A DNA stretch of 64,000 nucleotides, taken from the NCBI GenBank assembly GCA_963740905.1, contig CAVUFY010000004.1, positions 387,735-451,734 on the forward strand, read 5' to 3'. Position numbers and translations under genes: made by a program. The DNA is from an uncultured delta proteobacterium (GTDB lineage: Bacteria; Desulfobacterota; DSM-4660; Desulfatiglandales; HGW-15). Shown here in pieces: positions 3,934 through 30,519 of this stretch. The first letter of the stretch is position 1; each line of letters begins with the position of its first letter. The notes beneath the pieces were generated by a model. The model made no database searches and was not told the origin of the DNA. It saw nothing but the letters and a program-made list of their open reading frames with translations.

Positions 3934-3965
3934 TTCAGGATACAGATTAATCCGACTTACAATGC

Positions 3966-8479: not shown

Positions 8480-8487
8480 GTCTATCT

Positions 8488-9648: not shown

Positions 9649-9674
9649 AACCTCTCCCTCCTGATACCTCCGAC

Positions 9675-12621: not shown

Positions 12622-12949
12622 TGGGTACCAACAAAACGATCCATGAGGAGCGATATCCGGCAGAAGGTTAGTTCCTAATACCGCTGCCGTCATTATGTTC
12701 GGGCGTCACGAAGACTCCCGGTTGTTTGAAAAATCCATTATCTTCTGCGAGACGGGATTGAGGGGCAGATTCGCGGAAGATCCGTGATAGAAAAGTCAAC
12801 AGACAGCAAGTAGTTTAAAACAAGGGTCTTAACATGCTTTTGTAACTTGGCTCTTCCGAGCGTATTTAGCGGCTCAGCAAAATTTTGTTTGCCCTGCGAT
12901 CAAAGTTTGACAAAACTGTGTTTCTGGCCACACAGGGAGGAGACTAGCA

Positions 12950-13333
12950 ATGTTCAAGAGAATCGATCATGTCGAAATTGTTCCGAGAAACGCAGAAAAG
13001 ACCATTGACTTCTATGTCGATATCCTGGGCTTTAGGGTTAAAGGCCGAAATGAAGTCAGAATGCCGCCTATGAGAGAGGTCATTTATCTTCAACTGGGCG
13101 ATACGGTCATCGAGGTTATTTCCGCAGATAACCCCAAACTGAAATCAGAAAATCCCTGGGAAGTAGGATATAGAGGCATTGCCCTTGAGGTGGAGGATAT
13201 GGCAAAAGCGGTGGATTATCTGAAAAGCAGGGGGATAGCCATAGCCCGTGAACCTGTGGACTTGGGGGATTCGTATCGTGGAGAAATAAGAGATCCTGAT
13301 GGACTCATTATTGAACTCCGACAGTGGAAATAG
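12950..13333 (+). CDS. VOC (glyoxalase/bleomycin resistance/dioxygenase) family protein
   Basis: 127 aa with IDHVEIVPRNAEKTIDFYVDILGF...GIALEVEDM..., typical of a single VOC module. GGAGG lies upstream. Confidence 0.8.
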   Translation: MFKRIDHVEIVPRNAEKTIDFYVDILGFRVKGRNEVRMPPMREVIYLQLGDTVIEVISADNPKLKSENPWEVGYRGIALEVEDMAKAVDYLKSRGIAIAREPVDLGDSYRGEIRDPDGLIIELRQWK

Positions 13334-13699
13334 CCGATTAATGCCATTTTGCAAATCGGGTAAAGGCGAGGAGTCGTGAACTCCTACGCGGGTCATCAGG
13401 GACGGTCACCCGTCTCCAACTCCCTCGGATCATAGCAAACGGATTTTCCTCACAACACTCTTCCAAACAAGATCTATTCACAGCACAGAGGGTGATTACA
13501 GTTCCCTATAGGAAAACGACAATCTTGGTCGCGGAAAGAGAAGACTGTCCATAACTTCTTGACTTTTGGCCGATTTTCATCCAGCATTACTCGCAATTTC
13601 GGCTACCCAATCAGGTTCGTTTGACTTTTCTTCAAGGAAGAATGAGCTGTGCCTATTTTTTAACCCTTCGTCGTTCAGGGGTTCTAAGGAGCTAAAGAG

Positions 13700-14674
13700 A
13701 TGCAGGGGTCATTCCGAGAATACTGCAGCAGCCTCAAGGGGCTCCTGGATGATGCGGTGGAAGCAATCCTGCGAAGGATCTTCGATCATTTGCACACCAG
13801 TCCCTGTGATGCCTTGAATCAGACTTTTCGGGGCGGAAAAATGATCAGAGGCTCCCTTGTTTGCATGGTCAATGAAAGCCTCGGAGGATTGCGGGACTCC
13901 GCCGTTCCTCGATCTGTAGCCGTGGAACTCATTCACGGGGCTACCCTGATTCACGATGATTTTGTCGATCAGGATCGGACGAGACGGGGCAAGCCTGCCG
14001 CGTGGACCCTGGAGGGTGCCCGGAAAGCCGTCCTTTTCGGCGATGTGGTCTTTGCTTCGGCCATTGAGATGATGAGCAAAGTGGGGTGGGAAGATGGCCT
14101 GGTTGTTTCTCGTGCCATCGCCAGTATTTCGAAGGGAGCTTTCCAGGAACCCCTCGATCCTGCTGAACTGGCCGGGCAGGTCGAATCCAATGCTGTGAAC
14201 GATCGGCTCTATGATGCGATTATCCGTCTGAAGACTGGTGTCCTTTTCGGCGTTGCCTGTGAATTGGGCGCTATTGCTGCGGGTGCTGAGAGTCATGCAA
14301 GGGAGGCTTTTCATCGCTACGGCTTACTCCTTGGTGAAGCCTATCAGATTGCAGACGACCTGAAGGAGATCCGGCATCACCTGATCACCCGGTCCATCGG
14401 CTCCAGAGAACTCGCGGCGCTTGCCCCTGCCGTTCTTCGCTTCGGAAAGGACTCGCGGCATGTAATCCCGCTTATGTTGAGAAAGACGCATTCCTTGCTC
14501 GAAGGCACTGTGCTGGAGGAGTGGGAACACGTTCGGCAATGCATGGAACAGGAGATAGGGATACACCTGGAAAAGGCACAGCTTCAAGTCTCGGGGCTTT
14601 TTCCGGAGATCCTTCAAGAAACGATGATCCGCCAAGCTCCCTATGAGCTGATTGAGATGTTTAACGACTTGTGA
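13700..14674 (+). CDS. Polyprenyl diphosphate synthase family protein
   Basis: First Asp-rich motif LIHDDFVDQDRTRRG and second motif region YQIADDLKE. AAGGAG lies upstream of the ATG. Confidence 0.8.
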   Translation: MQGSFREYCSSLKGLLDDAVEAILRRIFDHLHTSPCDALNQTFRGGKMIRGSLVCMVNESLGGLRDSAVPRSVAVELIHGATLIHDDFVDQDRTRRGKPAAWTLEGARKAVLFGDVVFASAIEMMSKVGWEDGLVVSRAIASISKGAFQEPLDPAELAGQVESNAVNDRLYDAIIRLKTGVLFGVACELGAIAAGAESHAREAFHRYGLLLGEAYQIADDLKEIRHHLITRSIGSRELAALAPAVLRFGKDSRHVIPLMLRKTHSLLEGTVLEEWEHVRQCMEQEIGIHLEKAQLQVSGLFPEILQETMIRQAPYELIEMFNDL

Positions 14675-16746: not shown

Positions 16747-17181
16747 ATGACAGGAGAAGAACGCAAAGCATCGGCGCGGCAAGCCATCGACGAGGTAGTG
16801 AATAAAGGGAACTTGGCACCCGTTGACGAGTTTTTTGCGGCGAATTACATCGGACATCTTTCCGACGGAGCGGAACTGAATGGTCCGGCGGAATTCAAAC
16901 AGTTCATCACCTTGTTACGCAACGCTTTTCCGGACATCCAGTACAAAGTGGAGGATATGGCCTGCGACGGCGATATCTTAGCGGTTCGCACGAGTTTCAC
17001 CGGGACCATGACCGGTCCGTTGAGAGGAATACCGCCTACCGGCAAGAAAGTGGTCATGCAGGAGGCACTGTTCTATCGGTTCGAGGGCGACAAGATAGCC
17101 GAAGAATGGTCGTTCATCAACCAAATGGCCCTGTTACAACAGATCGGTTTAGCTCCTCCGGCCCCAACCCCAGGCGCCTAA
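16747..17181 (+). CDS. SnoaL-like (ester cyclase) family protein
   Basis: MTGEERKASARQAIDEVVNKGNLAPVDEFFAANYIGH...GIPPTGKKV...FYRFEGDKIAEEW is the typical predicted-ester-cyclase pattern. GGAGG lies 10 nt before ATG 16747. Confidence 0.75.
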   Translation: MTGEERKASARQAIDEVVNKGNLAPVDEFFAANYIGHLSDGAELNGPAEFKQFITLLRNAFPDIQYKVEDMACDGDILAVRTSFTGTMTGPLRGIPPTGKKVVMQEALFYRFEGDKIAEEWSFINQMALLQQIGLAPPAPTPGA

Positions 17182-17342
17182 TACGTCCACAGCAAAATCG
17201 CGGGCAAGGTGCTGAACAAGTCTCATCGAAAAAGGACTTGGCTCCAGACTACACCAACGAATATTGAGCATGGTGCGCAGGGAAGATGGTTTGGTCATAC
17301 GTTTACGCACTATCAGCATGGGTTTTTGCTAAAATACTAGCT

Positions 17343-17639
17343 TTAAATTACGCGATAGAACTGATCTACGGGCATGTCCCCGGTAGCGCTTATGATAGAC
17401 TTGACTAACTTCGAATACTCCTCGTCTTTGTCTAATTCAGCGTCGATTCGTTCGTAGTCGGCCAGCGAAGCATATCGTGTCTGAATCGTTGCGCGACCTC
17501 TCTCCCCTGCCAAGTTGTACATCAGCTCCACTGAGATTTCAGGATACTTCTTTTCCATGTGTGCCTTGGCTTTGACAAGTGCCTCGAAAAATTCCGAATA
17601 ATTCTCGCTATAACTGATTTCCCTCTGATGTATTATCAT
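17343..17639 (-). CDS. Hypothetical small protein (98 aa)
   Basis: Clean ORF with GGAGGA upstream (rc of tcctcc at 17645-17650). No family recognised. Confidence 0.5.
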   Translation of the reverse strand: MIIHQREISYSENYSEFFEALVKAKAHMEKKYPEISVELMYNLAGERGRATIQTRYASLADYERIDAELDKDEEYSKLVKSIISATGDMPVDQFYRVI

Positions 17640-18070
17640 TTGGTCCTCCTGATGCTATTTTGTCATAAAAAAGTGATAGGTTATAATTCAATAGCGCCGT
17701 AACCTCACTTATGTACAAGACAGGTAGCTCGTCGGCTCCTGGCGGAGGTTATGCAGCATCGATCTTCAACTTGGCAGAACTGGCTGTTCGTTACTTCCAC
17801 TCCGAACTCTCGTCCCGACAGTTAATCCTGATAAAAGGTGGAACAACATAATGGAATCCCCGTCTCGATTCCCACTTTAAGCATCTAAATGAAAGGAGGA
17901 AAATGGGGTGATCCCAGTATATTTTCACCAATAATCATGTACAGACGTCATGCAGTCCTATCCGTTTAGCCAACTGATTTCTGTGAAACCATAGGGGTGG
18001 AGCATTCGGCACTTAACGCTTGATCCTGCCCACCGAATGCGAAATACTATATGGCTACGGGAGAGCGTGG

Positions 18071-19504
18071 ATGAACACGATCAAGAGCAGGATCATCGTT
18101 TTCTTTATTCTGTGCCTGATATTTTTCAGCGTCTTAACTTTTCTGTACTACGATAACATATTTGTCCTTGAGAACAAGGTGCTCATCACAGAAAAATTCC
18201 ACGAAATTCTTGATAACATCCTTGAGTTGAGGCGCTATGAAAAGAACTACGTCTACTACCGGGACGGCGAAGACCGCTATGAAATCGTCTCTTATCTCTA
18301 CAGGACGGAAGACGCCTTGAAGCGGTCTGCGAATGAGATCAGGCCTGCCATCGGCGAGAACGAACTGGGGAAATTCAGGAACAATCTCGCGGATTACAAG
18401 GCAGCGCTAGAGGAGACCATGGCCTTCATGGGAGAAAACGGTGGAGAACAGATCTATCCGGAGGTTCTGAGGTCCAGGGGAAAAGTCCTGGTCGACTCCG
18501 CCCAAGAACTCATAAACCTCAACCGCTCCCGGATCCGGCAGGCCATGCGAAAGACCTTCACCATCCCTGTCGCCTTCGTGGGGATCTTTGTGGTTCTGGC
18601 CGTCTTCATATTCGTTCTCGTGGTCAGGAGTATCCTCAAGCCCTTGGCATTGATCCAGAGGGCGACGGAGCAGGTCGCCAAGGAGACCTTCGCCCCCATT
18701 TCCATTCAGACAGGCAAGAAAGACGAAGTATCCCGACTGATCGTAGCTTTCAACAACATGGCCGAAGAGCTTGAATCGAGACAGATGCAGCTCTTGCAGT
18801 CTCGAAAAATGGCATCCATCGGCACCCTCACGTCAGGTATTGCGCACGAACTCAATAACCCCCTCAACAACATTTCTCTCACTGCTGAGACCCTGATAAT
18901 GAACCACCGGGAGATGCCGGACGAGGAAAAGGAAGAGATGCTGGAGGAGATCATGCATCAGTCGGACAGGGGGAGCCAGGTGGTGAAGAACCTCCTGGAA
19001 TTTTCCAGGAGCGATCGTCCTTTCCTGAGCGCCCTCAGCGTACAGGAGACCATCAAGGGAACCATCAGACTCATCAGGAACCAACTGATGGTGAACGGGA
19101 TCAAGCTGCATGAAGAAATCCAGGACGACATCCCGTTCCTCAGAGGCAAACGCCAGGACTTGGAGCAGGCCTTTCTGAATATCCTGGTGAATTCCATCCA
19201 GGCCATGCCGGAGGGAGGGCGCATTACTATCAGGGCGGGCTTGGGACCGCAGGGTTACATTAGAGTAGATATCGAGGATACGGGAATCGGCATCAAACCG
19301 GAGGATTTGACCCACGTTTTTGACCCCTTTTACACGACCAAGCCCGTTGGTCAAGGCACAGGCCTCGGACTTTCCCTGGCCTACGGTATTGTCAGGAACC
19401 ACGGCGGGTACATCGAAACAAAGAGTCAGGTCAACAAGGGGACCGCCTTTTCCATCTATCTGCCCATTCCTGAGGAGAGGGAGGAGAGAGCCCATGCCCT
19501 TTAG
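18071..19504 (+). CDS. Sensor histidine kinase (TM - sensor - TM - HAMP - HisKA - HATPase)
   Basis: Two TM segments, H-box SGIAHELNNPLNNI, and G-boxes DTGIGI and GTGLGLS. Start at MNTIKSR. Confidence 0.9.
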   Translation: MNTIKSRIIVFFILCLIFFSVLTFLYYDNIFVLENKVLITEKFHEILDNILELRRYEKNYVYYRDGEDRYEIVSYLYRTEDALKRSANEIRPAIGENELGKFRNNLADYKAALEETMAFMGENGGEQIYPEVLRSRGKVLVDSAQELINLNRSRIRQAMRKTFTIPVAFVGIFVVLAVFIFVLVVRSILKPLALIQRATEQVAKETFAPISIQTGKKDEVSRLIVAFNNMAEELESRQMQLLQSRKMASIGTLTSGIAHELNNPLNNISLTAETLIMNHREMPDEEKEEMLEEIMHQSDRGSQVVKNLLEFSRSDRPFLSALSVQETIKGTIRLIRNQLMVNGIKLHEEIQDDIPFLRGKRQDLEQAFLNILVNSIQAMPEGGRITIRAGLGPQGYIRVDIEDTGIGIKPEDLTHVFDPFYTTKPVGQGTGLGLSLAYGIVRNHGGYIETKSQVNKGTAFSIYLPIPEEREERAHAL

Positions 19505-20855
19505 GATCGCCGTTGTTGACGACGAAGCCCCTGTCCGGAGGCACCTTCAGAAGGCTCTCGAAGGAGAAGGATACGAGGTGGAGACCTTCGACTCGGCGCG
19601 ACCCTTTTGGGACCGCATGGGTGAGAAGCCCTTCAACCTGGCCTTTCTGGATGTTAAGCTGCCTGATACCGACGGCATCGAGTTGCTCGCCCGTCTTAAG
19701 GCTCGCTATGAGCACACGGAGGCGATCATCATCACGGGCTACGGCTCGATTGATTCGGCTGTCGAGGCCATCAAGAAGGGCGCCTACCATTACGTGACCA
19801 AACCTTTCAGGCTCACCGAGGTATGTCTTCTCTCAAAGGGAGCCAGGGAAAAGATTGATGTGAGAGAGGAGAACCGTCGCCTGAAAGAGTCCCTGGAGGG
19901 ACCCGAAGTCCTCAAAGGGTTCATCGGTACGACCCCTGCCATGCAGGAGATCTTTGCCATGATTAAGAAGGTGGCCGCGGTCAATTGTAATGTGCTCCTG
20001 CAAGGTGAAAGCGGAACCGGAAAGGAACTGGTAGCAAGATCGATCCATGCCCTCAGTCCCCGGAAGGACCGGCCGTTTGTGTCCTTCAACTGCGGAGGAT
20101 TTACCGAAGAGTTGATCTGCAATGAGTTATTCGGCCACGAGAAGGGCGCCTTCACAGGGGCGACCTTGAGCAAGATCGGCCTCATTGAGTCGGCAGCGGG
20201 GGGCACGGTTTTCCTCGACGAGATTGGGGAAATGCCCCAGTCCATGCAGGTGAGGCTGCTCCACGTGATTCAGGAAAAACGGATCATCCGGGTTGGCGGC
20301 ACCAGACCCATCGATCTGGATATACGCATCATTGCGGCCAGTAACAGGGACATCAAGAAAGCGGCTTTTGAAGGCTATTTCCGAGAGGACCTTTTCTACC
20401 GGTTAAATGTGGTAACCCTTTATCTTCCCCCGCTGGCGGAAAGAAAAGAGGATATCCCCCTTCTGGTTTCCCGCTTCCTGGAAAAGTACAGCAGGCCTTT
20501 CGGCAAAAAGGTGAGGCGCATATCAGCTCAGGCACTTGAAATCCTGATGCACTACAATTTTCCCGGCAACGTGAGAGAACTGGAAAATATCACCCAACGG
20601 GCGGTAGCTCTTGCGGAGGGCGAAGTAATCCGGCCAAGAGACCTCCCCGCCGACCTCCAGGGCCTCGAATTCGACAGCTTCGAAGGAGAGGGGCTGCCTA
20701 CCCTCGAAGAAATGGAAAGGCAGCACATCGCCAGGGTTCTTGAGAAGACAGGGCACAACAAAGGCCTGAGCAGCAAGATCCTCAATCTCCCCCGGACCAC
20801 CCTCTGGAGGAAAATGAAAAAGTACGGCCTCCTCCGAAAGGATGAAACCCCTTAG
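19494..20855 (+). CDS. Sigma-54-dependent response regulator (NtrC family)
   Basis: Receiver domain (VVDDE...DVKLPDTDG...KPF), AAA+ domain with GESGTGKE and the GAFTGA motif, and a C-terminal HTH (LNLPRTTLWRKMKKYGL). It overlaps the kinase stop by 11 nt. Confidence 0.92.
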   Translation: MPFRIAVVDDEAPVRRHLQKALEGEGYEVETFDSARPFWDRMGEKPFNLAFLDVKLPDTDGIELLARLKARYEHTEAIIITGYGSIDSAVEAIKKGAYHYVTKPFRLTEVCLLSKGAREKIDVREENRRLKESLEGPEVLKGFIGTTPAMQEIFAMIKKVAAVNCNVLLQGESGTGKELVARSIHALSPRKDRPFVSFNCGGFTEELICNELFGHEKGAFTGATLSKIGLIESAAGGTVFLDEIGEMPQSMQVRLLHVIQEKRIIRVGGTRPIDLDIRIIAASNRDIKKAAFEGYFREDLFYRLNVVTLYLPPLAERKEDIPLLVSRFLEKYSRPFGKKVRRISAQALEILMHYNFPGNVRELENITQRAVALAEGEVIRPRDLPADLQGLEFDSFEGEGLPTLEEMERQHIARVLEKTGHNKGLSSKILNLPRTTLWRKMKKYGLLRKDETP

Positions 20856-20925
20856 GACTGCAATTTTTCATATTGAAACACCATTTTCCGCCTTGACCTA
20901 TCCGTTCCTGTTTCTTGAACAAATC

Positions 20926-20952
20926 TGAAACAGCTTCGTCCGCAGCGTTTCA
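20926..20952 (+). promoter_or_regulatory. Candidate upstream activator site for the NtrC-type regulator
   Basis: Inverted repeat TGAAAC-N15-GTTTCA about 75-100 nt upstream of the -24/-12 element. Extra TGAAAC half-sites lie at 20874-20879 and nearby. Confidence 0.35.
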
Positions 20953-21023
20953 AAATGAAAAGCTATTTTCTCTCTCTGTTTCCTCCCCTGTCATAACCCA
21001 ATGTTATCTTTAGATTTTTCTCC

Positions 21024-21039
21024 TGGCATGCCTCTTGCC
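21024..21039 (+). promoter_or_regulatory. Sigma-54 (-24/-12) promoter
   Basis: TGGCATgcctcTTGCc matches TGGCAC-N5-TTGCW with correct GG/GC spacing. It ends 25 nt upstream of the first gene of the block and lies directly downstream of an enhancer-binding-protein gene. Confidence 0.65.
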
Positions 21040-21064
21040 TTAATGTTCACGCGAGGAGGCTTCC

Positions 21065-21505
21065 ATGGAGAAGATTCTTGTGGGGGTGACACCGGAGAAT
21101 GATCGCCTATGGGCCGGCATGCACGCCCTCAGCCTGGCGAAAAGGATCGGGGCACAGGTCACCTTTCTCTTGATCTTGGACCCCGCTAGAAACAGCGCAA
21201 AACCCGGAGAAAGGAAAGAGGCGGAGCAGTCCGTCAGGAAAAGCCTGGAATCCATCATTGGTCAGGCTCGTTCCGAGGGGTTGCACGTGGAGTACTACGT
21301 GGCGCACGGCAGCTACGAGAGCGAGCTGATAAGATTCGTCAAGGAAAACAAGATGAGCATGCTCATCATCGATTGGCCGACTTGCGAAAAAGGGGCCGCT
21401 GGAAACGCTAAGGACATTTTGGAAAAGATCCGACATCAGATCGACTGCCGCGTGGAGGTTGTCCAGGAGAGAAGCTCGGATCTTGCGTGCAAAAGGAGAA
21501 GATGA
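21065..21505 (+). CDS. Universal stress protein (Usp)-like protein
   Basis: 146 aa with KILVGV...LLILD...ELIRFVKENKMSMLIID, a Usp-like alpha/beta fold pattern. No clear ATP-binding G-x2-G-x9-G(S/T) motif seen. Confidence 0.65.
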   Translation: MEKILVGVTPENDRLWAGMHALSLAKRIGAQVTFLLILDPARNSAKPGERKEAEQSVRKSLESIIGQARSEGLHVEYYVAHGSYESELIRFVKENKMSMLIIDWPTCEKGAAGNAKDILEKIRHQIDCRVEVVQERSSDLACKRRR

Positions 21506-22425
21506 TGATAGACTTGTACTTACCTATTGCCGGCGAGAGCGTCAATCTCCTTCTGGTGTTTGGCATGGGAGGCCTGGTGGGGGTCCTCTCGGGTATATTC
21601 GGTGTTGGAGGCGGTTTCCTGATGACCCCTTTGCTGATTATGCTGGGGATTCCTCCCACGGTGGCCGCGGCTTCCGATTCCAATCAGATCGTGGGCGCTT
21701 CAACCTCCGCCACCCTCGCCCATTACAAGATGGGCAATGTGGATTTCAAGATGGGCATCTTTCTCCTCATAGGAGGGGTGGCGGGCGGGACTCTGGGCGT
21801 CCAGATTATCAAGATTCTCCGTCAGATGGGAAATGCGGACTTCCTTATCAAGATCACCTATGTATTAATGCTTGGGCTCATAGGAACCTATATGTTTATC
21901 GAAAGCATCCAGGCCATGAGACACAAAGCCGTCAGGGAATCCGGCCCAAGGAAGGAGTCCAGGTACAGCCTTCTGGTGAACCGGCTTCCCTGGCAGATTG
22001 ATTTTGAGAAATCAGGGGTGAGGCGATCCATCCTTATGCCCCTCGGCCTCGGGATCTTTGTGGGCGTCATGGCTGCAATCATGGGGGTGGGCGGAGGATT
22101 TATCATGGTTCCCGTCATGGTGTATCTGCTGAGGATGCCCATGCATGTCGTGGTGGGGACCAGCCTTTTTCAGATTCTCTTCACCTGCATCAATGTCACT
22201 GTCATGCAAGCTTTAACCAACCACACCGTCGACTTCATCCTGGCGGTCATTCTTCTGGCAGGCTCCACCTCAGGGGCCCAGGTGGGCGCCCGATTGAGCA
22301 GGAGGCTGAAAGGCGAGCAACTGAAGATCCTCTTGGCATCTCTCGTTCTTCTCGTCATGCTCAAGATGCTGTTCGACCTTCTATTGCCCCCCGGAGTCCT
22401 GTTCTCAAGAATGGGAGGTCATTAA
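21502..22425 (+). CDS. TauE/SafE (TSUP) family anion permease
   Basis: GMGGLVGVLSGIFGVGGGFLMTPLLI and the second-half repeat IMGVGGGFIMVPVMVYLL are hallmark TSUP repeats. ATGA overlaps the upstream stop. Confidence 0.85.
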   Translation: MMIDLYLPIAGESVNLLLVFGMGGLVGVLSGIFGVGGGFLMTPLLIMLGIPPTVAAASDSNQIVGASTSATLAHYKMGNVDFKMGIFLLIGGVAGGTLGVQIIKILRQMGNADFLIKITYVLMLGLIGTYMFIESIQAMRHKAVRESGPRKESRYSLLVNRLPWQIDFEKSGVRRSILMPLGLGIFVGVMAAIMGVGGGFIMVPVMVYLLRMPMHVVVGTSLFQILFTCINVTVMQALTNHTVDFILAVILLAGSTSGAQVGARLSRRLKGEQLKILLASLVLLVMLKMLFDLLLPPGVLFSRMGGH

Positions 22426-22429
22426 ATTG

Positions 22430-23218
22430 ATGAAACGCCTTTCAGCAGTTCTCGTCCTATTGGTGACTGGTTTGTGGGCCTGCGCTCATGCCGCCCAGGC
22501 GTCAACTTCGGTGGAAGCTTACATGGAGCCCAGTGTTGTTTCCATCGGCGCCTTTTTCAACGGCGCCCGGATCACCGTTAAGGGGAAGGCTCCGGCGTCC
22601 AACGAGGTAATGATCACCGTGACCGGGAAGACGGAAGACCTGGAGCTCAACAAGAAGGGGCGCGCCTTCGGCCTTCTATGGATGAACGTCGGCACCATGA
22701 CCTTCCATCAGGTCCCCAGCGTGTATTTGTTTTACACATCAATGCCGCTCAATCCCTCTGCCCAGGCCTATCCCGAGTGGTGGCGTCAGATGCCGGGAGG
22801 ATTCGAATCCCTCGAAAAGAAAACTCAGATCACACCTGCCTCTGGAAAGGATGCCGGGGCTCTGTTCAAGGAATTCCTGAAGCTGAAGAAACAGGAAGGG
22901 CTTTACGCCCTTCACGGGGGTGAGATTCGATACGGCCGGGAAAAGGACAAAGAAAAATCCTATGAGGCTACGCTCTGTATTCCCGCCAAAATACCCCCAG
23001 GACGATACGAGGTGACGGTGTCCGCTCTCAACGGCGCATCCGTCGTGGGCTCCGCATCCGAGTATCTGACGGTTAAAGAGGTGGGCATGCCTGCTTATCT
23101 CTCGTCTTTTTCTCTGCACCATGGCCTCCTGTACGGTGTTCTCGCGGTCTTGATCGCTGTGGGAACAGGACTGCTCATGGACACGCTTTTTGGAAGCAAG
23201 AGGCCGCATTCCCATTAA
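22430..23218 (+). CDS. Secreted/membrane-anchored protein of unknown function (signal peptide + C-terminal TM; TIGR02186/Alph_Pro_TM-like from memory)
   Basis: MKRLSAVLVLLVTGLWACAHA signal peptide and C-terminal TM helix (LLYGVLAVLIAVGTGLLM). I recall this family being paired with TauE-like permeases. Confidence 0.5.
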   Translation: MKRLSAVLVLLVTGLWACAHAAQASTSVEAYMEPSVVSIGAFFNGARITVKGKAPASNEVMITVTGKTEDLELNKKGRAFGLLWMNVGTMTFHQVPSVYLFYTSMPLNPSAQAYPEWWRQMPGGFESLEKKTQITPASGKDAGALFKEFLKLKKQEGLYALHGGEIRYGREKDKEKSYEATLCIPAKIPPGRYEVTVSALNGASVVGSASEYLTVKEVGMPAYLSSFSLHHGLLYGVLAVLIAVGTGLLMDTLFGSKRPHSH

Positions 23219-23246
23219 GAAAGGGATCGCCTCGGAGGGACAGCCT

Positions 23247-25829
23247 GTGAGCGCATTTTCGGAACGGATCAGAGGGTTATTCGGGAAAAGGAGGGACCGC
23301 CCGGTCATGTTCCCCGCCCTTTTCACTCTGTTCCAGGAGGTTCTGGGCCTGAATAACGAGATCCTGGACACCATCGCCGATCTGGGCACCAAGCTGGGAG
23401 GAAATTATGTCTTTGACCAGCAGTACATTCGCTCCACATGTGCGCTCCTGGCCGACAAAGTCTACAGGATCATCAACAACCTGAATGCCATGACCGGCAA
23501 CAGACACATGGCTCTTTACGACACCTTTCAGCGTATCAACCATGAAATCACTGAAGAGCTGGAAGGAAGGCCCGTCATCGCCCAGACAGATTACACGATA
23601 CCCTACGAAGCGATAGGCACAGATCTTGTGGACGTGGTGGGCGCCAAGAACGCTACCCTGGCCGAAGTGGAGAACCTGCTCGGGCTCAAAGGTCCGGAAG
23701 GTTTTGCTATTACCGCTCGGGCCTTTCAGGCATTCTTGGAGCACAAGGATCTTGCAAAGAAGATCGCCTCTGTGACTTCACGGTGGGAAAAGGGGCACAT
23801 CATAAGCCGGGAGGCAGAGGAGATGATACGGGCCTTGATTAAAGCGGCCGAGGTGCCGGTCCCCTTGCAGAAGGCCCTTCGCAGGGCCACGGAAGCGCTT
23901 CGTGATAAAACGCAGGGCAACGAGGAGAAGCTCGCCTTTCGGAGCAGCGCCCTGAATGAGGACGGTGAACACTCTTTCGCCGGTCAATACATGAGCCTTC
24001 TCAATGAGGCGGCGGAAAAAATCATCGACTGCTACAAATCCGTGCTGGCAAGCACCTATTCCGCTTCCGCCATGGAGTACAGGCGCCAAAAGGGGTTTCT
24101 TGAAAGCGAAGTGGCCATGGCTGTCGGATGCCAGCGCATGGTTGCGGCAAAGGCGAGCGGAACTCTCTACACCCTTGATCCCCGTTCCCCTGAAGATGAG
24201 GTGATGGTCATTACGGCCACCTGGGGGTTGGGCGCCCCCCTGGTGGGAGGGACCGCGAAAGCAGACCTTTATGCGGTCACACGTGAGCCCTCCCACGAAA
24301 TCGTGCGCCTTGACATCGTGCGTAAAACGGAAAGACTCATGCCTAAGCAGGAGGGCGGAGTAGAGTTTCTCCCCGTTCCCGAGGAGCTTCAGAGCGTGAG
24401 TTGCCTTTCCGGCGATCAAGCAAGGCGTCTGGCTGATGCAGGGCTCCTCATCGAAAGGCATTTCAAAAAGCCCCAGGATGTCGAGTGGGCTCTTGACGAC
24501 CGCGACAGGCTCTTCATCCTGCAGACACGACCACTCAACATCCGGGCGAAAGTGGCCCAGATGGTCTGTGACATCTCGTCAGTGCTCCGGAACTATACGG
24601 TCCTCTTTGAGGGCAGAGGTTTCGTTGCCCAGGAAGGGATCGGGGCAGGAAAGGTTTTCATCGCCGACACGGATGAAGACCTGGATGTCTTTCCGGAAGG
24701 AGCCGTCCTGGTCACAAGGTATGCCTCTCCGCGGGTCGGAAGGGTCATCAAGAAGGCGAACGCAGTTCTCACTGACGTGGGATCTCCTACCGGACACATG
24801 GCTACCATCGCGCGGGAGTTCCGCGTCCCTGCCCTCGTCAATACGGAAGTGGCAACGGAACTACTCCGACCGGGCCAGGTCATCACAGTAGATGCCAGGC
24901 AGAACGTGGTGTACTCAGGCACGGTCAAAGAGCTTTGTCTCTATGAGTTCGCAGGGGAAGCCTTCGAAGAGATGTGGGAATATCGTCTCTTACGACGAGT
25001 TCTGAAAAGAATCGCGCCGCTGAACCTGATCGACCCCGCCGACAAAGATTTCTTGCCTTCCGCCTGCAAGACCTTCCACGACATTACGCGCTTCGTCCAC
25101 GAAAAAGCGGTGGAGGAACTGATCGACCTGAGATACTCCCATGCCTCTGAAGAGGCCATGGCGGGCCGGAAGAAGCTCAAGTTCGACGTCCCCCTTTCCT
25201 TGGTTCTGATCGATATCGGCGACGGCCTTAATCAATCGAGCGGCTTGACCGTAGAACCCAAAGACGTGGCCTCGGTGCCCATGCAGGCCTTTCTGCGCGG
25301 TCTGTCCGAGCCGGGAGCCTGGAGTACCCGGCCCCTGTCAGTGGATTTCACGAGCTTCATGTCAAGCCTGACGCGCACGCTGTCACTTGCAGGAACAGGG
25401 CCCAAGTACGTGGGGCAGAATCTTGCAATCATATCCAAAGAGTATGCGAACATTACCCTTCGGCTGGGTTACCACTTCAACATGATTGACGCCTATATCA
25501 GCGAGCAGTCCAACAGCAACTATGCTTATTTCCGCTTTCTCGGAGGAGTAACGGAGATGGTCCGCAGGTCCCGCAGGGCGCGGCTTCTCGCCGATATTCT
25601 TTTGCAGAAAGACTTTCGCGTGGATGTGCGGGGGGACCTGGTTGTGGCTAGGATCAAGAAATTGCCGAAGGAGAGAATGGAAGATAAGATGCGTCTTCTC
25701 GGTTCCTTGGTCGCCTTTACCCGCCAGCTCGACGTAAGGATGATCAGCGACGAGGAGATCCCCAGGGTCAGGGAAGAGTTCAACGAACTGAAAGAGACCG
25801 AGCAGGGTCACCACAACCTAACGGTATGA
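23247..25829 (+). CDS. PEP-utilising-enzyme family protein: ATP-grasp (PPDK_N) + swivelling His domain + non-canonical C-terminal domain
   Basis: PPDK_N-type region (VGAKNATLAEV...FRSSALNEDGEHSFAGQY...DVEWALD..LFILQTRP) and mobile domain TDVGSPTGHMATIAREFRVPALV. The C-terminal ~300 aa lack PpsA TIM-barrel motifs. Start set at GTG 23247 after GGAGGG. Confidence 0.85.
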   Translation: MSAFSERIRGLFGKRRDRPVMFPALFTLFQEVLGLNNEILDTIADLGTKLGGNYVFDQQYIRSTCALLADKVYRIINNLNAMTGNRHMALYDTFQRINHEITEELEGRPVIAQTDYTIPYEAIGTDLVDVVGAKNATLAEVENLLGLKGPEGFAITARAFQAFLEHKDLAKKIASVTSRWEKGHIISREAEEMIRALIKAAEVPVPLQKALRRATEALRDKTQGNEEKLAFRSSALNEDGEHSFAGQYMSLLNEAAEKIIDCYKSVLASTYSASAMEYRRQKGFLESEVAMAVGCQRMVAAKASGTLYTLDPRSPEDEVMVITATWGLGAPLVGGTAKADLYAVTREPSHEIVRLDIVRKTERLMPKQEGGVEFLPVPEELQSVSCLSGDQARRLADAGLLIERHFKKPQDVEWALDDRDRLFILQTRPLNIRAKVAQMVCDISSVLRNYTVLFEGRGFVAQEGIGAGKVFIADTDEDLDVFPEGAVLVTRYASPRVGRVIKKANAVLTDVGSPTGHMATIAREFRVPALVNTEVATELLRPGQVITVDARQNVVYSGTVKELCLYEFAGEAFEEMWEYRLLRRVLKRIAPLNLIDPADKDFLPSACKTFHDITRFVHEKAVEELIDLRYSHASEEAMAGRKKLKFDVPLSLVLIDIGDGLNQSSGLTVEPKDVASVPMQAFLRGLSEPGAWSTRPLSVDFTSFMSSLTRTLSLAGTGPKYVGQNLAIISKEYANITLRLGYHFNMIDAYISEQSNSNYAYFRFLGGVTEMVRRSRRARLLADILLQKDFRVDVRGDLVVARIKKLPKERMEDKMRLLGSLVAFTRQLDVRMISDEEIPRVREEFNELKETEQGHHNLTV

Positions 25830-25836
25830 GGACATC

Positions 25837-26235
25837 ATGAATGAGAACAAGAAGACGAGCGTTCTTATCCTGGACGATGAAACGATCGTGATCAAGCGAC
25901 TGAAGCCGGCCCTGGAGAAGACGGGCTATGAAGTGGAGGCCTTTTCCCAAAGTGCGGAAGCCTCAAGGCGTATCATGGAAAAGGACTTCGATATCGTCAT
26001 TACCGATCTCAAGATGGAAGGGCTTGACGGTATGCAATTCCTGACTCAGGTTAAGGAACGCTCCCCGTCCACGGAGGTCATTGTCATCACAGGCTTTGCC
26101 ACCATGGAGACGGCCAAGGAGTCCTTCCAGAAGGGAGTGTTCGATTTTCTGGCAAAGCCTTTCAAAATCGCAGAGATCCAAGAGGTCTTGAAAAGGGCGG
26201 AATTAAAAATAGGAGAGAGAAAATCGGTCCGGTAG
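25837..26235 (+). CDS. Single-domain response regulator (CheY-like receiver)
   Basis: VLILDDE...DIVITDLKMEGLDG...VIVITG...KPF, 132 aa, with no output domain. Confidence 0.9.
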   Translation: MNENKKTSVLILDDETIVIKRLKPALEKTGYEVEAFSQSAEASRRIMEKDFDIVITDLKMEGLDGMQFLTQVKERSPSTEVIVITGFATMETAKESFQKGVFDFLAKPFKIAEIQEVLKRAELKIGERKSVR

Positions 26236-26298
26236 AGGCGCCCGTTCGATCGGGGACCGCCCTCCACCGGCTCGGCAAAGAAGGAGTGGACAAGTACC

Positions 26299-27123
26299 AT
26301 GATTAGAGCTCTCGTTTCTCTGGACGTGGATCTGGCATCAAGCATCGCCCTAAGATATGCTTGCCAGATGGCTAAGATTGTCGAGATGGAGCTCCAACCT
26401 ATCCACGTTGAGGAGCCCGGGCGTGAGGGGCGCGTCCTCGGAACGGGCTGGGTCGAGCGAACATGGGAGAAAACCCTGCTCAAAACCGGACTGGAAGAGA
26501 TTAACCGGCTGATCATGACAGAAAGAGGCTCGTGTCCGGCCATCTTCCCTCCCAAAATCTCTGTCGGAAATCCTCAGAACGAGATCCTCCGTGAACTCAA
26601 AGAAGAACCCTATGACCTGCTTGTAAAAGGCGAGTTGTACGCATTCACTTCAGCCGGGTTTCACGAAAAGGTCCACTCCCGTCTCTTCCGCTATGCCCCC
26701 TGTCCCATCATGGTAGTCAACAACCTCGTTCATCTTCAGAAGGTGAGCCTTCTTCTGGAAGAAGGGACCGAAATCCAGCCCCTGATCGGAACTTTCCTAA
26801 AGCTGTTCGGTGCGACAGACGTTGATGCCGACCTGCTCTATTGCAGGTTTCGGCCTTCCGCCAGGCAAGGTACCCGCCAGGATGAGAAGCCTGATACGAT
26901 CATTCGCGCCGCAGAGGAAATGTTTTCCCGGCAAGGTCGTAGGCTGGGAAAAACCGAGGTCAGAGAGGAGGCGCCCGAGAAGCTGGGGGATCTCATGCGG
27001 GATTACGGTCTTGTCATGACTTCCATCCACCATGATCGAGGCCGGAAGAATCCGATGGCGGAGTTGTTGAGCCATACGCCGTCTCCCATCCTGCTGCTTA
27101 TCCGGCAGGGTGCAAACAGATAA
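26299..27123 (+). CDS. Tandem universal-stress-protein-like protein
   Basis: 274 aa with two Usp-like halves (...YDLLVKGE...CPIMVV... and ...SPILLL). Confidence 0.6.
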   Translation: MIRALVSLDVDLASSIALRYACQMAKIVEMELQPIHVEEPGREGRVLGTGWVERTWEKTLLKTGLEEINRLIMTERGSCPAIFPPKISVGNPQNEILRELKEEPYDLLVKGELYAFTSAGFHEKVHSRLFRYAPCPIMVVNNLVHLQKVSLLLEEGTEIQPLIGTFLKLFGATDVDADLLYCRFRPSARQGTRQDEKPDTIIRAAEEMFSRQGRRLGKTEVREEAPEKLGDLMRDYGLVMTSIHHDRGRKNPMAELLSHTPSPILLLIRQGANR

Positions 27124-27134
27124 AGGAGGATGGA

Positions 27135-28031
27135 ATGAGAATCCTTGTCGCAGTGGACCGAAACCCATACAGCGCCCTTGCCATCGCTGAAGCGGCGGCG
27201 CTCGCCAAGAATACGTGGGCCAACGTCACCCTGCTCGGTGTGGACGCCAAGAGGCTGCAGAAGGGAGAGAAATCCGCCGCGAGTCCCATGGGAAAGGACA
27301 TGAAACACCACCCGCTCATGGAGACGCTTCGCCGTTACCGGGAGGACTTTCTCGGGTATTTCGAGGCAGGCGATTCGCCTTACACGGGACAGGAGTTCGA
27401 TTATGAAGTCATTGAGATGAAGAAGGGCATATGGGAGGAACTCCGCGTGTGCCGGGCCGGGAAGAAGGACCTGAGGGTGCGCGTGAGAACCGGAAACCCC
27501 TTGAAGGAAATCCTGTCGGAATCCATCGAGAAGGAGAGCGACCTCATCGTCATCGCCTGTGACAAAGGAAATAACTGCGCGTGGGAGAAGGCCGGAAACC
27601 TTCCCCAGAAAGTCGCTAATGAAGCTTCCTGTTCTGTCATGGTGGTAAAGGGCAAGGAGAAGATCAACCAGGTGGTTTGCTGCTTGGATCATGCTCAAGT
27701 GAGCCAGGCCTCTCTCGAATTGATCAGCCAGATGGTGACCCTGCACCAGGCGACTTTGGACATTGTCGGGCTCACGGACAAGGAGAGCCTTAAAGCCGAA
27801 GTTGAGAGAAAGATGGATTGGATCCTCAAGTATTACGCAGCTCGGCAGATTAAGCCCTGGATTAAACTGGTAGACGGCTACTCTCTTGAAACTTTCATCA
27901 GCCAGGAAGCTCGTCGGGGTCTTATCGCCTTGTGGATGGGGGAGAAATCCGTCCTGAGCAGGATCTTTCCGCGAAGCAAAGTCGAGAAGTTGGTCAAATC
28001 CGCGGGCTCTTCCATCCTGATCCTGAGATGA
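27135..28031 (+). CDS. Tandem universal-stress-protein-like protein
   Basis: 298 aa with MRILVAVDRNPYSALAIAEAA...SDLIVIACDK...CSVMVVK and a second half ending SSILILR. Confidence 0.7.
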   Translation: MRILVAVDRNPYSALAIAEAAALAKNTWANVTLLGVDAKRLQKGEKSAASPMGKDMKHHPLMETLRRYREDFLGYFEAGDSPYTGQEFDYEVIEMKKGIWEELRVCRAGKKDLRVRVRTGNPLKEILSESIEKESDLIVIACDKGNNCAWEKAGNLPQKVANEASCSVMVVKGKEKINQVVCCLDHAQVSQASLELISQMVTLHQATLDIVGLTDKESLKAEVERKMDWILKYYAARQIKPWIKLVDGYSLETFISQEARRGLIALWMGEKSVLSRIFPRSKVEKLVKSAGSSILILR

Positions 28032-29370
28032 ACTCTGAGAAATCCTCCGGATCGGGGATGTCGAGTCCCAGGTGACGGCCCATCAATCCGAATTGCCCGT
28101 AGGCCATTTCCGCCCCGTACTGGACTGCGCAGCCCTTTTCGAGAGCTGCCGCCAACCATGGCGTGACTTTGGGGTTGGTGACCACATCGGCCACCAATGT
28201 TGGCGGGGACAGCGACTCCGTGGGAAACGGCACATGTGGATCGTCATTCATCCCCACCGGTGTGGCGTTCACCACGAGGTCGAAGCCCTCCAGCTCGGTG
28301 AGCTCAAAGGAAATTCTGACAGCCGGATTTCCCTTTTTGAGCAAACGCTCCAAGAATCCATGGCGCTCCGTCCGTATTTCTTTGATCACGATTTCATCGG
28401 CTCCGGACCGGGCTATCGCCTCGGCAATGGCCGCTCCGGCACAGCCCCCGCCGATCACCGCGACGCGTTTGCCATGGACAGACAGCCCGTGGTTCCTGAT
28501 CGCCACCATAAAACCAAGGCCGTCCACCATGTCCCCGATAAGACGTCCGTTTTGAGCCCTGACGACGTTGACCGCAAGAAGGTCTTTGACCCTCCCGGAT
28601 ATTTCGTCCATAAATTCCACCGCCGATTGCTTGTGGGGTACCGTCACGATACACCCCCCAAAGTTGGAAATAGTCCGCATCAACATGAAATGATCCTTTA
28701 CCCGGTCCACGGGCACGTCCATGGCGATCATGACGGCATCTATTTCGTGTTCGCCAAAATAGCGATTGTAAAGAAGGGGGGATTTTACCTGGATGACCGG
28801 CGTTCCGATCATGGTGTAAAACGTTGTGGTTCCCGTCGGGACAACCCCACTCGTGCTCTCGGCTCTCCTTTCCGTTTGCCTCTCAAGCCACGCTTCGTTT
28901 GCCAGAACAACGGAGGTTTCTACCTGGCGTCCGGGAACGGACCAGTATTTCCTGAGCAGCCGGTTCTTTTCCTGATCGGGGATCACGATGAATCCGCGCT
29001 TTTCATAGAAGCGAACAGCCCAGACAGCATCCGCCCATGTGCCGATGAGGATCGGCCTTGCAGTCTCTTTGCACAGAAAGGACAAAAGCTCGCTTCCGAT
29101 GCCCCTGCCCTGTTCAGAGGGCAAAACGTAGGCATGCCTGATCAGGGCAACATCTTTGACTTGCTGAAAACCCATGACACCTATCAACCGGTCACCGCGT
29201 CGGTATCCCCAGAACTCGATTCCCTCCCTGATCTCTTGTCCGAGTTCTTCCTCCGACATATAAGGCTCTTTCCAGCAGTCTTCGGAGATCACTCCTTGAT
29301 ACTTCTCGGCAGCCTTATTGATGATAGAATAAATGGCTGCAAAGTCTCCATCCTCACATCGTCGGATCAT
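27994..29370 (-). CDS. GNAT acetyltransferase fused to a shikimate/quinate dehydrogenase (AroE-like) domain
   Basis: The N-terminal half has a GNAT core (VLPSEQGRGIGSELL...FYEKRGF). The C-terminal half has AroE motifs (GTPVIQVKSPLLYN, VTVPHKQ, GDMVDGLGF, VIGGGCAGAAIA, NATPVGM). The start is uncertain (29370 or 29400). The 3' end overlaps the convergent Usp gene by 38 nt. Confidence 0.8.
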   Translation of the reverse strand: MIRRCEDGDFAAIYSIINKAAEKYQGVISEDCWKEPYMSEEELGQEIREGIEFWGYRRGDRLIGVMGFQQVKDVALIRHAYVLPSEQGRGIGSELLSFLCKETARPILIGTWADAVWAVRFYEKRGFIVIPDQEKNRLLRKYWSVPGRQVETSVVLANEAWLERQTERRAESTSGVVPTGTTTFYTMIGTPVIQVKSPLLYNRYFGEHEIDAVMIAMDVPVDRVKDHFMLMRTISNFGGCIVTVPHKQSAVEFMDEISGRVKDLLAVNVVRAQNGRLIGDMVDGLGFMVAIRNHGLSVHGKRVAVIGGGCAGAAIAEAIARSGADEIVIKEIRTERHGFLERLLKKGNPAVRISFELTELEGFDLVVNATPVGMNDDPHVPFPTESLSPPTLVADVVTNPKVTPWLAAALEKGCAVQYGAEMAYGQFGLMGRHLGLDIPDPEDFSEFISGSGWKSPRI

Positions 29371-29595
29371 CCTGTCTCTCCTCGCCTCCACTCCGGCCAT
29401 CGAATATCCAGGCAACCTATGAAACATGATACGATGGCGGACGCTAACCCGCAATCGCAAAAAGCAGATCTTTCTCAGGTGCTGCCCCCCAAGCTTGCCA
29501 ACTCCGCCCAAATCTGTTAAGCAAAGAATCTCCGGCTTTCAAATTTTACATTATCTTCGGGAATTCCGCTGGCTCGGAAGGAGATCATCACAAAA

Positions 29596-30519
29596 ATGCG
29601 GTCAGCCGCGGGCGGACTTTTGTGGCTTGGTTTAGCACCTCTCTTCTACAGCGCTTTAAGCAGTTCGGCTAAACTAGCAGGGACGCATCTCAGCGTCTGG
29701 CAGATTGGCGTGGGCCGCTTTGTCCTCGGCCTTATGCTTGTCCCGCCTGTCATTCGCCTTCTGGGCTTGAGCCTCTGGGGCAGGCAGCGCCCCCTTCTGA
29801 TTATGCGCGGATTATGCGGCGCTACGGCCTTCCTGCTTCAGGTGGCCTCCTTCCAGAGAATCCCACTGTCCGTTGCAATGGTCCTCTTTTACCTTTATCC
29901 GGCCTTCACAGCTCTCCTGTCCCCTTGTCTTACCGGAGAGCCGACGAGCAAGAAAGCCTGGCCTTTTATCATCGGTGCTTTTGCCGGCACCACCCTGATT
30001 CTTTGGCCCACGAAGTCTGCCGGCCGGGATTTGGACTTGGGACATCTCTTCATCCTGGCCGCTGCGGTACTGTGTGCGGTTACCCTTCTTTTGGTTCGCA
30101 GACTGGGCAAAGAGAACAACATCTACACCTTGTTTTATTATCTTTGTCTTGCAGGAACCCTGGCCGGTCTCGGTCCTTTGCTGTTTCAGGAAGGTCCGAT
30201 TTGGCCGGCAGGCTCTCAGGCCTGGCTGGAGTTGGTCGCGGTGGCCGTCTTTTCAGTCGGCGCCCAACTGTCCATCAACCAGGCTTTGATTCATATCCCG
30301 GCGCCGAAAGTCAGTGTCATGATGACTGCCGAAGTGCCCCTTGTTGCATGCTTCGGTGTTCTTTACCTGGGAGAACCTTTGGATTGGCGCCTGTTGGTGG
30401 GATCTCTTCTAATCTTCGGCTGCGGAGTCGGGCTCAACATTCTGCCTGCTAAGACAGATCTCCTCTCAACGGTTCGGACATACCTTCGTCTTCCTAAGAC
30501 ACGTCGATCAATCAGCTGA
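29596..30519 (+). CDS. DMT superfamily (EamA-like) transporter
   Basis: 307 aa with 10 TM-like segments in two EamA-type halves. Confidence 0.8.
   Translation: MRSAAGGLLWLGLAPLFYSALSSSAKLAGTHLSVWQIGVGRFVLGLMLVPPVIRLLGLSLWGRQRPLLIMRGLCGATAFLLQVASFQRIPLSVAMVLFYLYPAFTALLSPCLTGEPTSKKAWPFIIGAFAGTTLILWPTKSAGRDLDLGHLFILAAAVLCAVTLLLVRRLGKENNIYTLFYYLCLAGTLAGLGPLLFQEGPIWPAGSQAWLELVAVAVFSVGAQLSINQALIHIPAPKVSVMMTAEVPLVACFGVLYLGEPLDWRLLVGSLLIFGCGVGLNILPAKTDLLSTVRTYLRLPKTRRSIS

Follow-up and report, generated by a model that had tools for sequence, protein, structure and literature searches.

A conserved operon with a predicted sigma-54 promoter unites a TauE-family permease, a phosphoenolpyruvate-synthase-like enzyme and a stand-alone receiver in sulfur-cycling Desulfobacterota

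The 64,000-nucleotide stretch of DNA analysed here, hereafter called the window, comes from an uncultured delta proteobacterium (contig CAVUFY010000004.1, positions 387,735 to 451,734) and contains a block of seven plus-strand genes that spans positions 21065-28031 and lies directly 3' of the genes of a histidine kinase and an NtrC-type activator. The block is an operon with its own sensor-activator pair, and it is conserved across many sulfur-cycling Desulfobacterota. The sensor histidine kinase gene (18020-19504, +; Pfam HAMP, HisKA and HATPase_c), whose likely start is the ATG at 18071, is overlapped at its stop over 8 nucleotides (nt) by the start of the gene of an NtrC-type enhancer-binding response regulator (19497-20855, +; Pfam REC, Sigma54_activat or PF00158 with 224 bits, HTH_8 or PF02954, and a GAFTGA motif). 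After an intergenic region of 209 nt come the genes of Usp1, a single-domain Usp-fold protein (21065-21505, +); of a TauE/TSUP-family permease of 307 amino acids (aa; 21502-22425, +); of a TIGR02186/Alph_Pro_TM partner protein (22430-23218, +); of a phosphotransferase of 860 aa resembling phosphoenolpyruvate (PEP) synthase (23247-25829, +; Pfam PPDK_N and PEP-utilizers), hereafter the enzyme; of a stand-alone receiver of 132 aa (25837-26235, +; Pfam Response_reg); and of two tandem Usp-fold proteins, Usp2 (274 aa; 26299-27123, +) and Usp3 (298 aa; 27135-28031, +). The successive gaps of -4, +4, +28, +7, +63 and +11 nt, which an earlier, sequence-only reading of the window had given for a seven-gene block, are borne out by the coordinates; Pfam agrees with its domain calls (Usp, TauE, PPDK_N/PEP-utilizers, receiver, kinase and NtrC-type activator), and Pfam and sequence together confirm the GAFTGA-bearing activator and its kinase just upstream.

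The extent of the unit was established by comparison. A scan of one genome per species with the 860-aa protein found relatives in 267 species genomes, and the 80 best loci were then compared with the window proteins by tblastn. Almost everywhere in these 80 loci the order kinase, activator, (Usp1), TauE, partner, enzyme, receiver, Usp2, Usp3 recurs. The loci cover Desulfobacterales, Desulfatiglandales, Desulfobulbales and Desulfarculales, as well as Desulfacinum (Syntrophobacterales-type), Desulfohalobiaceae and one Nitrospirae metagenome-assembled genome, with identities to the window proteins of 67-81% (permease), 52-79% (receiver), 52-76% (activator) and 45-65% (enzyme). The co-occurrence of the block in other genomes, which the sequence-only reading had proposed to look for, is therefore decisively found, and the recurrent order supports its view of a single conserved block. 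Because no further family of open reading frames (ORFs) exceeds 12 of the 80 loci when the ORFs of the flanks are clustered, the nine genes, from the kinase to Usp3, are taken as the unit.

Within this unit the members are not equally constant. No protein of the block is more conserved than the permease, which is never missing in the 80 loci; the partner gene adjoins the TauE gene in all of them, and a histidine kinase is found 5' of the block in most. Usp1 was detected in 38 of the 80 and is truly absent from about two dozen; where it is truly absent, a leader of 100-350 nt separates the promoter described below from TauE. To judge from this comparison, TauE, partner, enzyme and receiver are the universal core and Usp1 is a lineage-specific accessory. 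In Desulfovibrio sp. TomC, TauE, Alph_Pro_TM, enzyme and receiver are accompanied by a divergent kinase and activator, and two further paralogues of the enzyme stand in the place of Usp2 and Usp3. A second histidine kinase, 33-39% identical to the upstream kinase, was also observed in several lineages, directly 3' of Usp3 in loci L021, L023, L024, L026, L035, L036 and L064, and directly 3' of the receiver in L022, L025 and L027, in which Usp2 and Usp3 were undetected.

The promoter predicted for the block is a sigma-54 element of the form TGGCAT-N5-TTGCc (TGGCATgcctcTTGCc, 21024-21039, +) with the exact -24/-12 spacing, which ends 25 nt before the ATG of Usp1, with a GAGGAGG ribosome-binding site in between. 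Its core, TGGCATgcctcTTGC at 21024-21038, is the sole exact match to TGGCAY-N5-TTGC in the 64-kb window; 0.31 matches are expected there by chance and at least one occurs in 26 of 100 shuffles, a chance level that speaks against reading much into it. Since one such match is not unexpected, the window alone proves nothing. It is the comparison across related loci that settles the matter: the position is conserved, 46 of 66 related loci have a strict -24/-12 element at most 400 nt 5' of their first gene, as against about 0.6% of random 250-nt segments from the same loci, and for this reason the predicted element is accepted. In most loci that bear Usp1 it starts about 40-70 nt 5' of the Usp1 start. 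The near-consensus element of the earlier reading is thus confirmed, and the conservation supports its proposal that the adjacent kinase/NtrC-type pair is the likely activator. In the loci that lack Usp1 and have a long leader (L038, L045, L048, L050, L053, L054, L056, L059, L062, L063, L065, L066, L069-L072, L074, L077 and L078), the sigma-54 promoter was seen about 100-560 nt 5' of TauE (100-360 nt in all but L070), and the leader contains no ORF.

Upstream of this promoter lie two predicted activator sites, each with one mismatch to GTTTCA-N3-TGAAAC: a distal one, TTTTTCATATTGAAACA (20864-20880), which starts 159 nt 5' of the -24 TGG, and a proximal one, CGTTTCAAAATGAAAAG (20946-20962), which starts 77 nt 5' of it. 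The two palindromes are 82 bp apart, and the conserved unit among the relatives is a 17-bp palindrome, TGTTTCA-N3-TGAAACA, usually present in two copies about 82-84 bp apart in many loci. Allowing two mismatches at most, the palindrome occurs in 52 of 54 related upstream regions and in 3.4% of random segments; with one mismatch at most, the window has three matches where 0.20 are expected, and two of the three are at the promoter. Positions -77 and -159 fit the distance of an upstream activator site (about 70-200 bp from the promoter), and the pair has the classic tandem-enhancer layout of NtrC-type activators, which suggests that the activator binds here. The TGAAAC half-sites noticed in the sequence-only reading hold good: four TGAAAC hexamers lie in 20843-20952, and 96-98% of related loci have TGAAAC/GTTTCA 5' of the promoter, compared with 17-19% of background segments that contain it. 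Their pairing as TGAAAC-N15-GTTTCA does not, for it joins a stray half-site to one half of a palindrome; no N15 spacing recurs across 54 loci, whereas GTTTCA-N3-TGAAAC does, and the former was rejected as a functional unit. Also set aside was the third match, GATTCATCTTGAAAC at 56338-56352 (one mismatch), about 330 nt 5' of the ORF 56683-57999, which is probably due to chance because no -24/-12 element stands beside it.

The block stops at a convergent ORF (27994-29511, -) whose 3' end overlaps that of Usp3 by 38 nt and whose product is a fusion of a GNAT acetyltransferase with a shikimate-dehydrogenase-like domain. The genes that flank the unit are unrelated to it; their products include a SnoaL-like protein, an MFS transporter, an EamA transporter, a GntR regulator and an Fe-type alcohol dehydrogenase. 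No Rfam family matches within 17000-30000, and a terminator scan gave no signal above the shuffled expectation inside the block. A near-consensus sigma-70-type promoter, TTGTCA-16-TATAAT (11 of 12 positions), was noted at 17660-17687 on the plus strand, about 330-380 nt 5' of the kinase gene and adjoining the start of a small minus-strand ORF (17343-17639).

The proteins encoded by the unit fall into a sensory pair, a transporter and a set of cytoplasmic components. In the kinase, two transmembrane helices flank a periplasmic domain of about 140 aa, followed by HAMP, HisKA and HATPase_c (transmembrane scan); this periplasmic domain, which carries an invariant LExRRYEKN motif in 50 orthologues, suggests that an external cue is sensed. 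The activator consists of REC, an AAA+ sigma-54 interaction domain with GAFTGA, and a Fis-type helix-turn-helix. The permease matches PF01925 with 175 bits (cut-off 32.6) over profile positions 2-237 of 237 and contains multiple hydrophobic segments. Its partner reaches 145 bits against PF09608 (cut-off 24.5) and 85.5 against the NCBIfam hypothetical-equivalog model TIGR02186, whose cut-off is 255, so that by its scores it is a distant member of TIGR02186. An N-terminal signal or transmembrane helix, two beta-sandwich domains and a C-terminal transmembrane helix make up this partner (AlphaFold2; predicted local distance difference test, pLDDT, 89). The sequence-only reading had assigned to the permease its usual secreted partner; the partner is indeed encoded next to TauE, but according to the model it would be anchored in the membrane by its C-terminal helix and not simply secreted. 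A specific binding-protein or SoxYZ-type fold was considered for it and rejected, as the structure search gave only generic Ig/arrestin-like beta-sandwich matches, and a literature search for TIGR02186, Alph_Pro_TM and PF09608 found nothing.

The three Usp proteins all lie above the PF00582 cut-off of 24 (Usp1 37.8, Usp2 25.3 and Usp3 56 bits). The earlier claim that one of them lacks the ATP motif proves correct in that such a protein exists, but too narrow: G-x2-G-x9-G(S/T) is present in none of the three window proteins, and among their orthologues it occurs in 0 of 38 for Usp1, 1 of 60 for Usp2 and 1 of 59 for Usp3. Conserved features of another kind are the N-terminal motifs DLASSIALRYA and GTGWVxRTWE of Usp2, and, in Usp3 and its orthologues, the cysteines of GC-x5-C-W, A-x-CSV and CC-LD, which may form a redox or metal site. 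The presence of three Usp-fold proteins invites a reading of the block as a general stress or energy-state module, in which the Usp proteins, the receiver and an AMP-forming enzyme would report energy or stress and the permease would be incidental. Sigma-54 regulons often serve stress functions (PMC4641369), and the genes of the Desulfovibrio "nitrate cluster", with which the unit is compared below, trend upward under nitrate and nitrite stress in D. vulgaris (PMC4001038). It is nevertheless the permease, at 67-81% identity, that is most conserved and never missing, and the Usp proteins that are dispensable, Usp1 being absent in about half of the loci and Usp2 and Usp3 being replaced in Desulfovibrio sp. 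TomC; we regard a stress module as very improbable.

The largest member of the core is the enzyme. Its GTG start at 23247, with a GGAGGG ribosome-binding site 7 nt 5', yields 860 aa, and its homologues measure 856-860 aa. A helical N-terminal extension of about 95 aa is followed by an ATP-grasp domain (PPDK_N, 267 bits), a swivelling phosphohistidine domain (PEP-utilizers, 64 bits) whose catalytic His in GSPTGH is invariant in 12 homologues, and a C-terminal domain of about 300 aa. The swivelling domain lies in the middle of the chain, at about residues 480-550 of the 860-aa protein, or 501-571 when counted in the 879-aa translation of the ORF. The best sequence matches in the PDB are the PEP synthases 8a8e and 2ols, to residues of about 95-545, and the ATP-grasp alone matches rifampin phosphotransferases; no NCBIfam model reaches its cut-off (330 against 598, 317 against 740), the partial similarities being to PEP synthase, rifampin phosphotransferase and PigC. 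In the C-terminal ~300 aa, Pfam gives no match to the PEP-utilizers_C TIM barrel even at E-values of up to 10, and neither a single sequence nor a 15-sequence profile of this domain matches a PDB sequence. In an AlphaFold2 model (pLDDT 72.6, predicted template-modelling score 0.77) the domain is predicted to have a mixed alpha/beta fold that is not a TIM barrel, and Foldseek found no significant match to it in the PDB (best E-value 0.014, template-modelling score at most 0.23); YbjN-like or secretion-chaperone-like matches were weak and were discarded as unreliable.

This C-terminal part is apparently a new, conserved domain. An exhaustive HMMER search recovered it from about 1160 protein clusters (50% identity), and in nearly all cases it forms the C terminus of a protein of about 850 aa. 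Because a domain so widely conserved replaces the TIM barrel, the enzyme is not a truncated PEP synthase: the sequence-only reading was right that the usual substrate domain is missing, and wrong to call the protein truncated. On the strength of these comparisons the enzyme belongs to a distinct, widespread and uncharacterised subfamily with, as we predict, its own acceptor domain, and the annotation "PEP synthase" is wrong for it. About 27 positions do not vary among 15 members of the domain family that share 32-52% identity with the window protein; Cys, His, Asp, Arg and Asn account for many of these positions, and the invariant motifs include C-x3-HD-x5-HE, DxGGG, RLGYHF, FxGG, RRxRR and TRQLD. 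In the window, where the domain is encoded by 24909-25826, C-x3-HD-x5-HE and RRxRR are suggestive of a metal site and an anion-binding site, respectively.

PEP synthase, rifampin phosphotransferase, PigC and phenylphosphate synthase all phosphorylate small molecules. Such activities among the family relatives of the enzyme, the first three of which NCBIfam recovers as partial matches, raise the question whether it could be a metabolic dikinase (X + ATP giving X-P, AMP and inorganic phosphate) that traps an imported small molecule, the receiver being only an on/off switch. The invariant Cys, His, Asp and Arg residues of the C-terminal domain (C-x3-HD-x5-HE, RRxRR and several Asp and Asn) look like a small-molecule active site and would favour a metabolic over a purely regulatory role, and the enzyme, the largest protein of the core, belongs to it invariably. 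In the comparison of the flanks, on the other hand, no downstream enzyme that would use a phosphorylated product is linked to the unit, one paralogue of the enzyme has no detectable ATP-grasp, and paralogous enzyme-receiver pairs stand beside unrelated transporters (Kup in L041, DASS in L082). These varied neighbours speak for a general regulatory device, and we consider substrate trapping quite unlikely.

The receiver keeps its phospho-acceptor residues in 77 sequences (LDDE, TDLKM, ITGFAT and KPF) and shares 36% identity with the receiver of the upstream activator. Its gene follows that of the enzyme in every complete locus, and in 53 of 74 loci the stop of the enzyme and the start of the receiver overlap or are at most 15 nt apart (by an approximate start-codon call). 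A natural fusion of the two, with the receiver at the C terminus, is P0140 (987 aa), the only one among the five longest family representatives scanned, out of 150 representatives in all. Whole modules are moreover duplicated: beside the main cluster of L050, positions 1-4536 hold a second TauE, a 229-aa protein with no detectable relation to TIGR02186, an enzyme and a receiver, and in L041 (12841-16546) a membrane-anchored DUF202-receiver fusion and an enzyme paralogue lie next to a Kup K+ transporter. Taken together, the adjacency, the frequent overlap of start and stop, the natural fusion and the duplicated four-gene modules indicate that the enzyme and the stand-alone receiver are a pair. 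Further paralogues were observed in L081 (Desulfovibrio sp. TomC, 5998-13970), where three enzyme genes stand in a row and one lacks a detectable ATP-grasp, and in L082 (Desulfomicrobium, 9001-14268), where two stand beside a PAS-type sigma-54 activator gene and DASS transporter genes.

How the receiver is phosphorylated admits more than one answer: the kinase may feed both receivers, or the phosphohistidine of the enzyme may feed the stand-alone one. A speculative extension of the second answer, to which we give a rather low probability, is that enzyme and receiver form a new phosphorelay, in which a swivelling His charged by ATP would donate to, or be controlled by, the receiver Asp docked on the C-terminal domain. 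Charging would convert ATP to AMP and would open an entry to two-component signalling without a histidine kinase, whose output, on the same doubtful footing, would be the post-translational gating of the TSUP oxyanion transporter; in the paralogous modules, equally tentatively, other transporters such as Kup would be gated. This relay would fit the C-terminal receiver of P0140, because such a fusion mimics hybrid kinases; it would fit the frequent overlap of the enzyme and receiver genes and the duplication of the four-gene modules; and it would fit D. vulgaris, because the receiver and enzyme mutants of the nitrate cluster have strong phenotypes although the cluster kinase is a pseudogene (PMC4001038).

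The model we propose, to which we give about an even balance of belief and doubt, is that the unit is a signal-induced transporter of a sulfur oxyanion, probably of the thiosulfate type, with a built-in phosphotransfer control unit. An external signal would be detected by the membrane histidine kinase through its periplasmic helical sensor, and the kinase, as its architecture and linkage suggest, would phosphorylate the adjacent NtrC-type activator. The binding of the activator to the two TGTTTCA-N3-TGAAACA palindromes would open the promoter at 21024-21039, a step that conservation in about 50 species supports. The TauE/TSUP permease and its membrane-anchored beta-sandwich partner would then form a transporter, most likely for an inorganic sulfur oxyanion, uptake of a thiosulfate-type substrate being the leading candidate in view of the published genetics and proteomics on relatives. 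In the cytoplasm, the enzyme would use ATP to phosphorylate its swivelling His and would pass the phosphoryl group to whatever its C-terminal domain binds; paired with the stand-alone receiver in a control unit, it would control or complete the transport process, and the three Usp proteins, lacking the ATP motif, would probably act as protein-binding modulators. The signalling and transport character that the sequence-only reading had given to the block is likewise supported.

Much of the anaerobic sulfur cycle depends on sulfate reducers and sulfur disproportionators, and the passage of thiosulfate, sulfite and sulfate across the membrane of these organisms is still largely unassigned (PMC5840216). 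The cluster described here, with relatives in at least 267 species genomes and a permease 67-81% identical across orders, is among the most conserved unassigned units in Desulfobacterota, and its putative Desulfovibrio relative determines the sensitivity to nitrate, which is used against oil-field souring. Neither the nine-gene unit nor its palindromic site nor the enzyme's C-terminal domain is described in any paper that our literature search found. With the unit, its promoter and its predicted activator site defined, and the "PEP synthase" annotation corrected, the system becomes directly testable. Could the enzyme-receiver pair, with its new domain, be new biochemistry? Should it turn out to be a phosphorelay or a dikinase chemistry of a new kind, its interest would reach well beyond sulfur metabolism.

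Among known systems, the enzyme shares with PEP synthase and pyruvate phosphate dikinase (PPDK) an N-terminal ATP-grasp followed, in the same order, by a swivelling phosphohistidine domain; it differs from them by the absence of the PEP-utilizers_C TIM barrel and by its extra helical N-terminal extension of about 95 aa. Rifampin phosphotransferase and PigC/RedH belong to the same superfamily, and their ATP-grasp and swivelling His phosphorylate a substrate other than pyruvate, but their His domain is C-terminal, after the substrate domain, and only residues of about 95-420 of the window protein align with them. In Enzyme I of the phosphotransferase system (PTS) and in EI-Ntr, to which the His domain has weak PDB matches, the phosphate of a swivelling phosphohistidine domain goes to a partner protein that a separate domain binds. 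Enzyme I obtains its phosphate from PEP by way of a TIM barrel, and its partner is HPr or NPr; it offers a precedent for a protein substrate and for the regulation of transport, whereas the window enzyme has an ATP-grasp and would have the receiver as its partner. TeaD of the TeaABC TRAP transporter and the Usp domain of KdpD are Usp-fold, ATP-binding regulators of transporters; as in the window, the Usp is encoded with a transporter, but the window proteins lack the ATP motif.

For the permease and its regulation the closest precedents are found in sulfate reducers. A highly conserved TSUP clade, present in 25 of 44 sulfate reducers, was suggested by Marietou et al. (2018) to be a candidate sulfate transporter, and their "clade B" includes DVU2958 and Dret_2118 (PMC5840216). 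Kazakov et al. (2015) showed that TSUP permease genes belong to several sigma-54 operons of D. vulgaris, with, for example, DVU2956 activating DVU2957-2964 and DVU0110/DVUA0057 activating DVU0132-0133 (PMC4641369). These operons resemble the window in their -24/-12 promoter, adjacent activator gene and upstream recognition site; DVU2956, however, is a single-component activator without a receiver, whereas the window activator is a two-component regulator with its own kinase, and the binding motif differs.

The poorly annotated nitrate cluster of Desulfovibrio (DVU0251-DVU0245 and Dde_0597-Dde_0605), described by Korte et al. (2014), comprises TauE, a hypothetical protein, a PtxB-like protein, a kinase, a receiver, a PPDK-like enzyme and a phosphatase (PMC4001038). 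Strong resistance to 100-150 mM nitrate, but not to nitrite, results from transposon insertions in any of the genes of TauE, the hypothetical protein, the receiver and the PPDK-like enzyme (PMC4001038), and the shared phenotype of the mutants places these components in one pathway. The G20 mutants were in addition mildly impaired on thiosulfate, and a leaky thiosulfate transporter was proposed by the authors (PMC4001038). As in the window, a TauE permease is followed by a small conserved hypothetical protein, a stand-alone receiver and a histidine kinase are present, and the PPDK-like enzyme has an ATP-grasp and a mobile His and no annotated PEP/pyruvate TIM barrel. In the nitrate cluster the receiver precedes the enzyme, which is shorter (744 aa); the window type is the type found in Desulfovibrio sp. 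TomC.

In Dissulfuribacter thermophilus, TauE rises by 1.56, its "co-occurring transmembrane protein" by 1.79 and a "PEP synthase" by 3.40 log2 units during thiosulfate disproportionation, and the last is interpreted as gluconeogenic (PMC13490349). If its tag is DITHS69_1988, this protein is more likely the enzyme of the TauE cluster. The "unknown function" of the earlier reading passes over these leads from the nitrate cluster (PMC4001038) and from the co-induction in D. thermophilus (PMC13490349).

Several points of these comparisons weigh against our model. The nitrate cluster alone has a PtxB-like protein, an embedded PAS/HAMP kinase (a pseudogene in DvH), a DUF169 protein and a phosphatase, and neither the PtxB-like protein, the embedded PAS/HAMP kinase nor a DVU0245-type phosphatase occurs in the window block or in the 80 loci; the cluster contains neither Usp proteins nor an NtrC-type activator, its gene order differs, and its likeness to the window is drawn from composition and published domain annotations. 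The "PEP synthase" of D. thermophilus, A0A1B9F8F1, is listed as DITHS69_1988 in Table 2, next to the TauE partner 1989, and as DITHS69_1161 in section 3.2.1 (PMC13490349). The D. thermophilus data, finally, fit an export of sulfate or sulfite as well as an uptake: the TauE/partner pair would then export sulfite or sulfate on its build-up, and the other proteins would tune this export. Both the Pfam family name and the characterised TauE/SafE members point to the export of sulfite and sulfoacetate (PMC5840216), and sulfite/sulfate export is what the D. thermophilus authors propose during thiosulfate disproportionation, when sulfate is produced (PMC13490349). The loss of the putative Desulfovibrio relatives leads, however, to resistance to external nitrate and slightly poorer growth on thiosulfate, which uptake explains more easily (PMC4001038), and the periplasmic sensor domain of the kinase suggests an external cue; export seems unlikely to us. 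An induced uptake of a thiosulfate-type oxyanion remains our preferred reading, and by analogy the unit would take its place beside the sigma-54 TSUP operons and the nitrate cluster of Desulfovibrio, as a variant of them.

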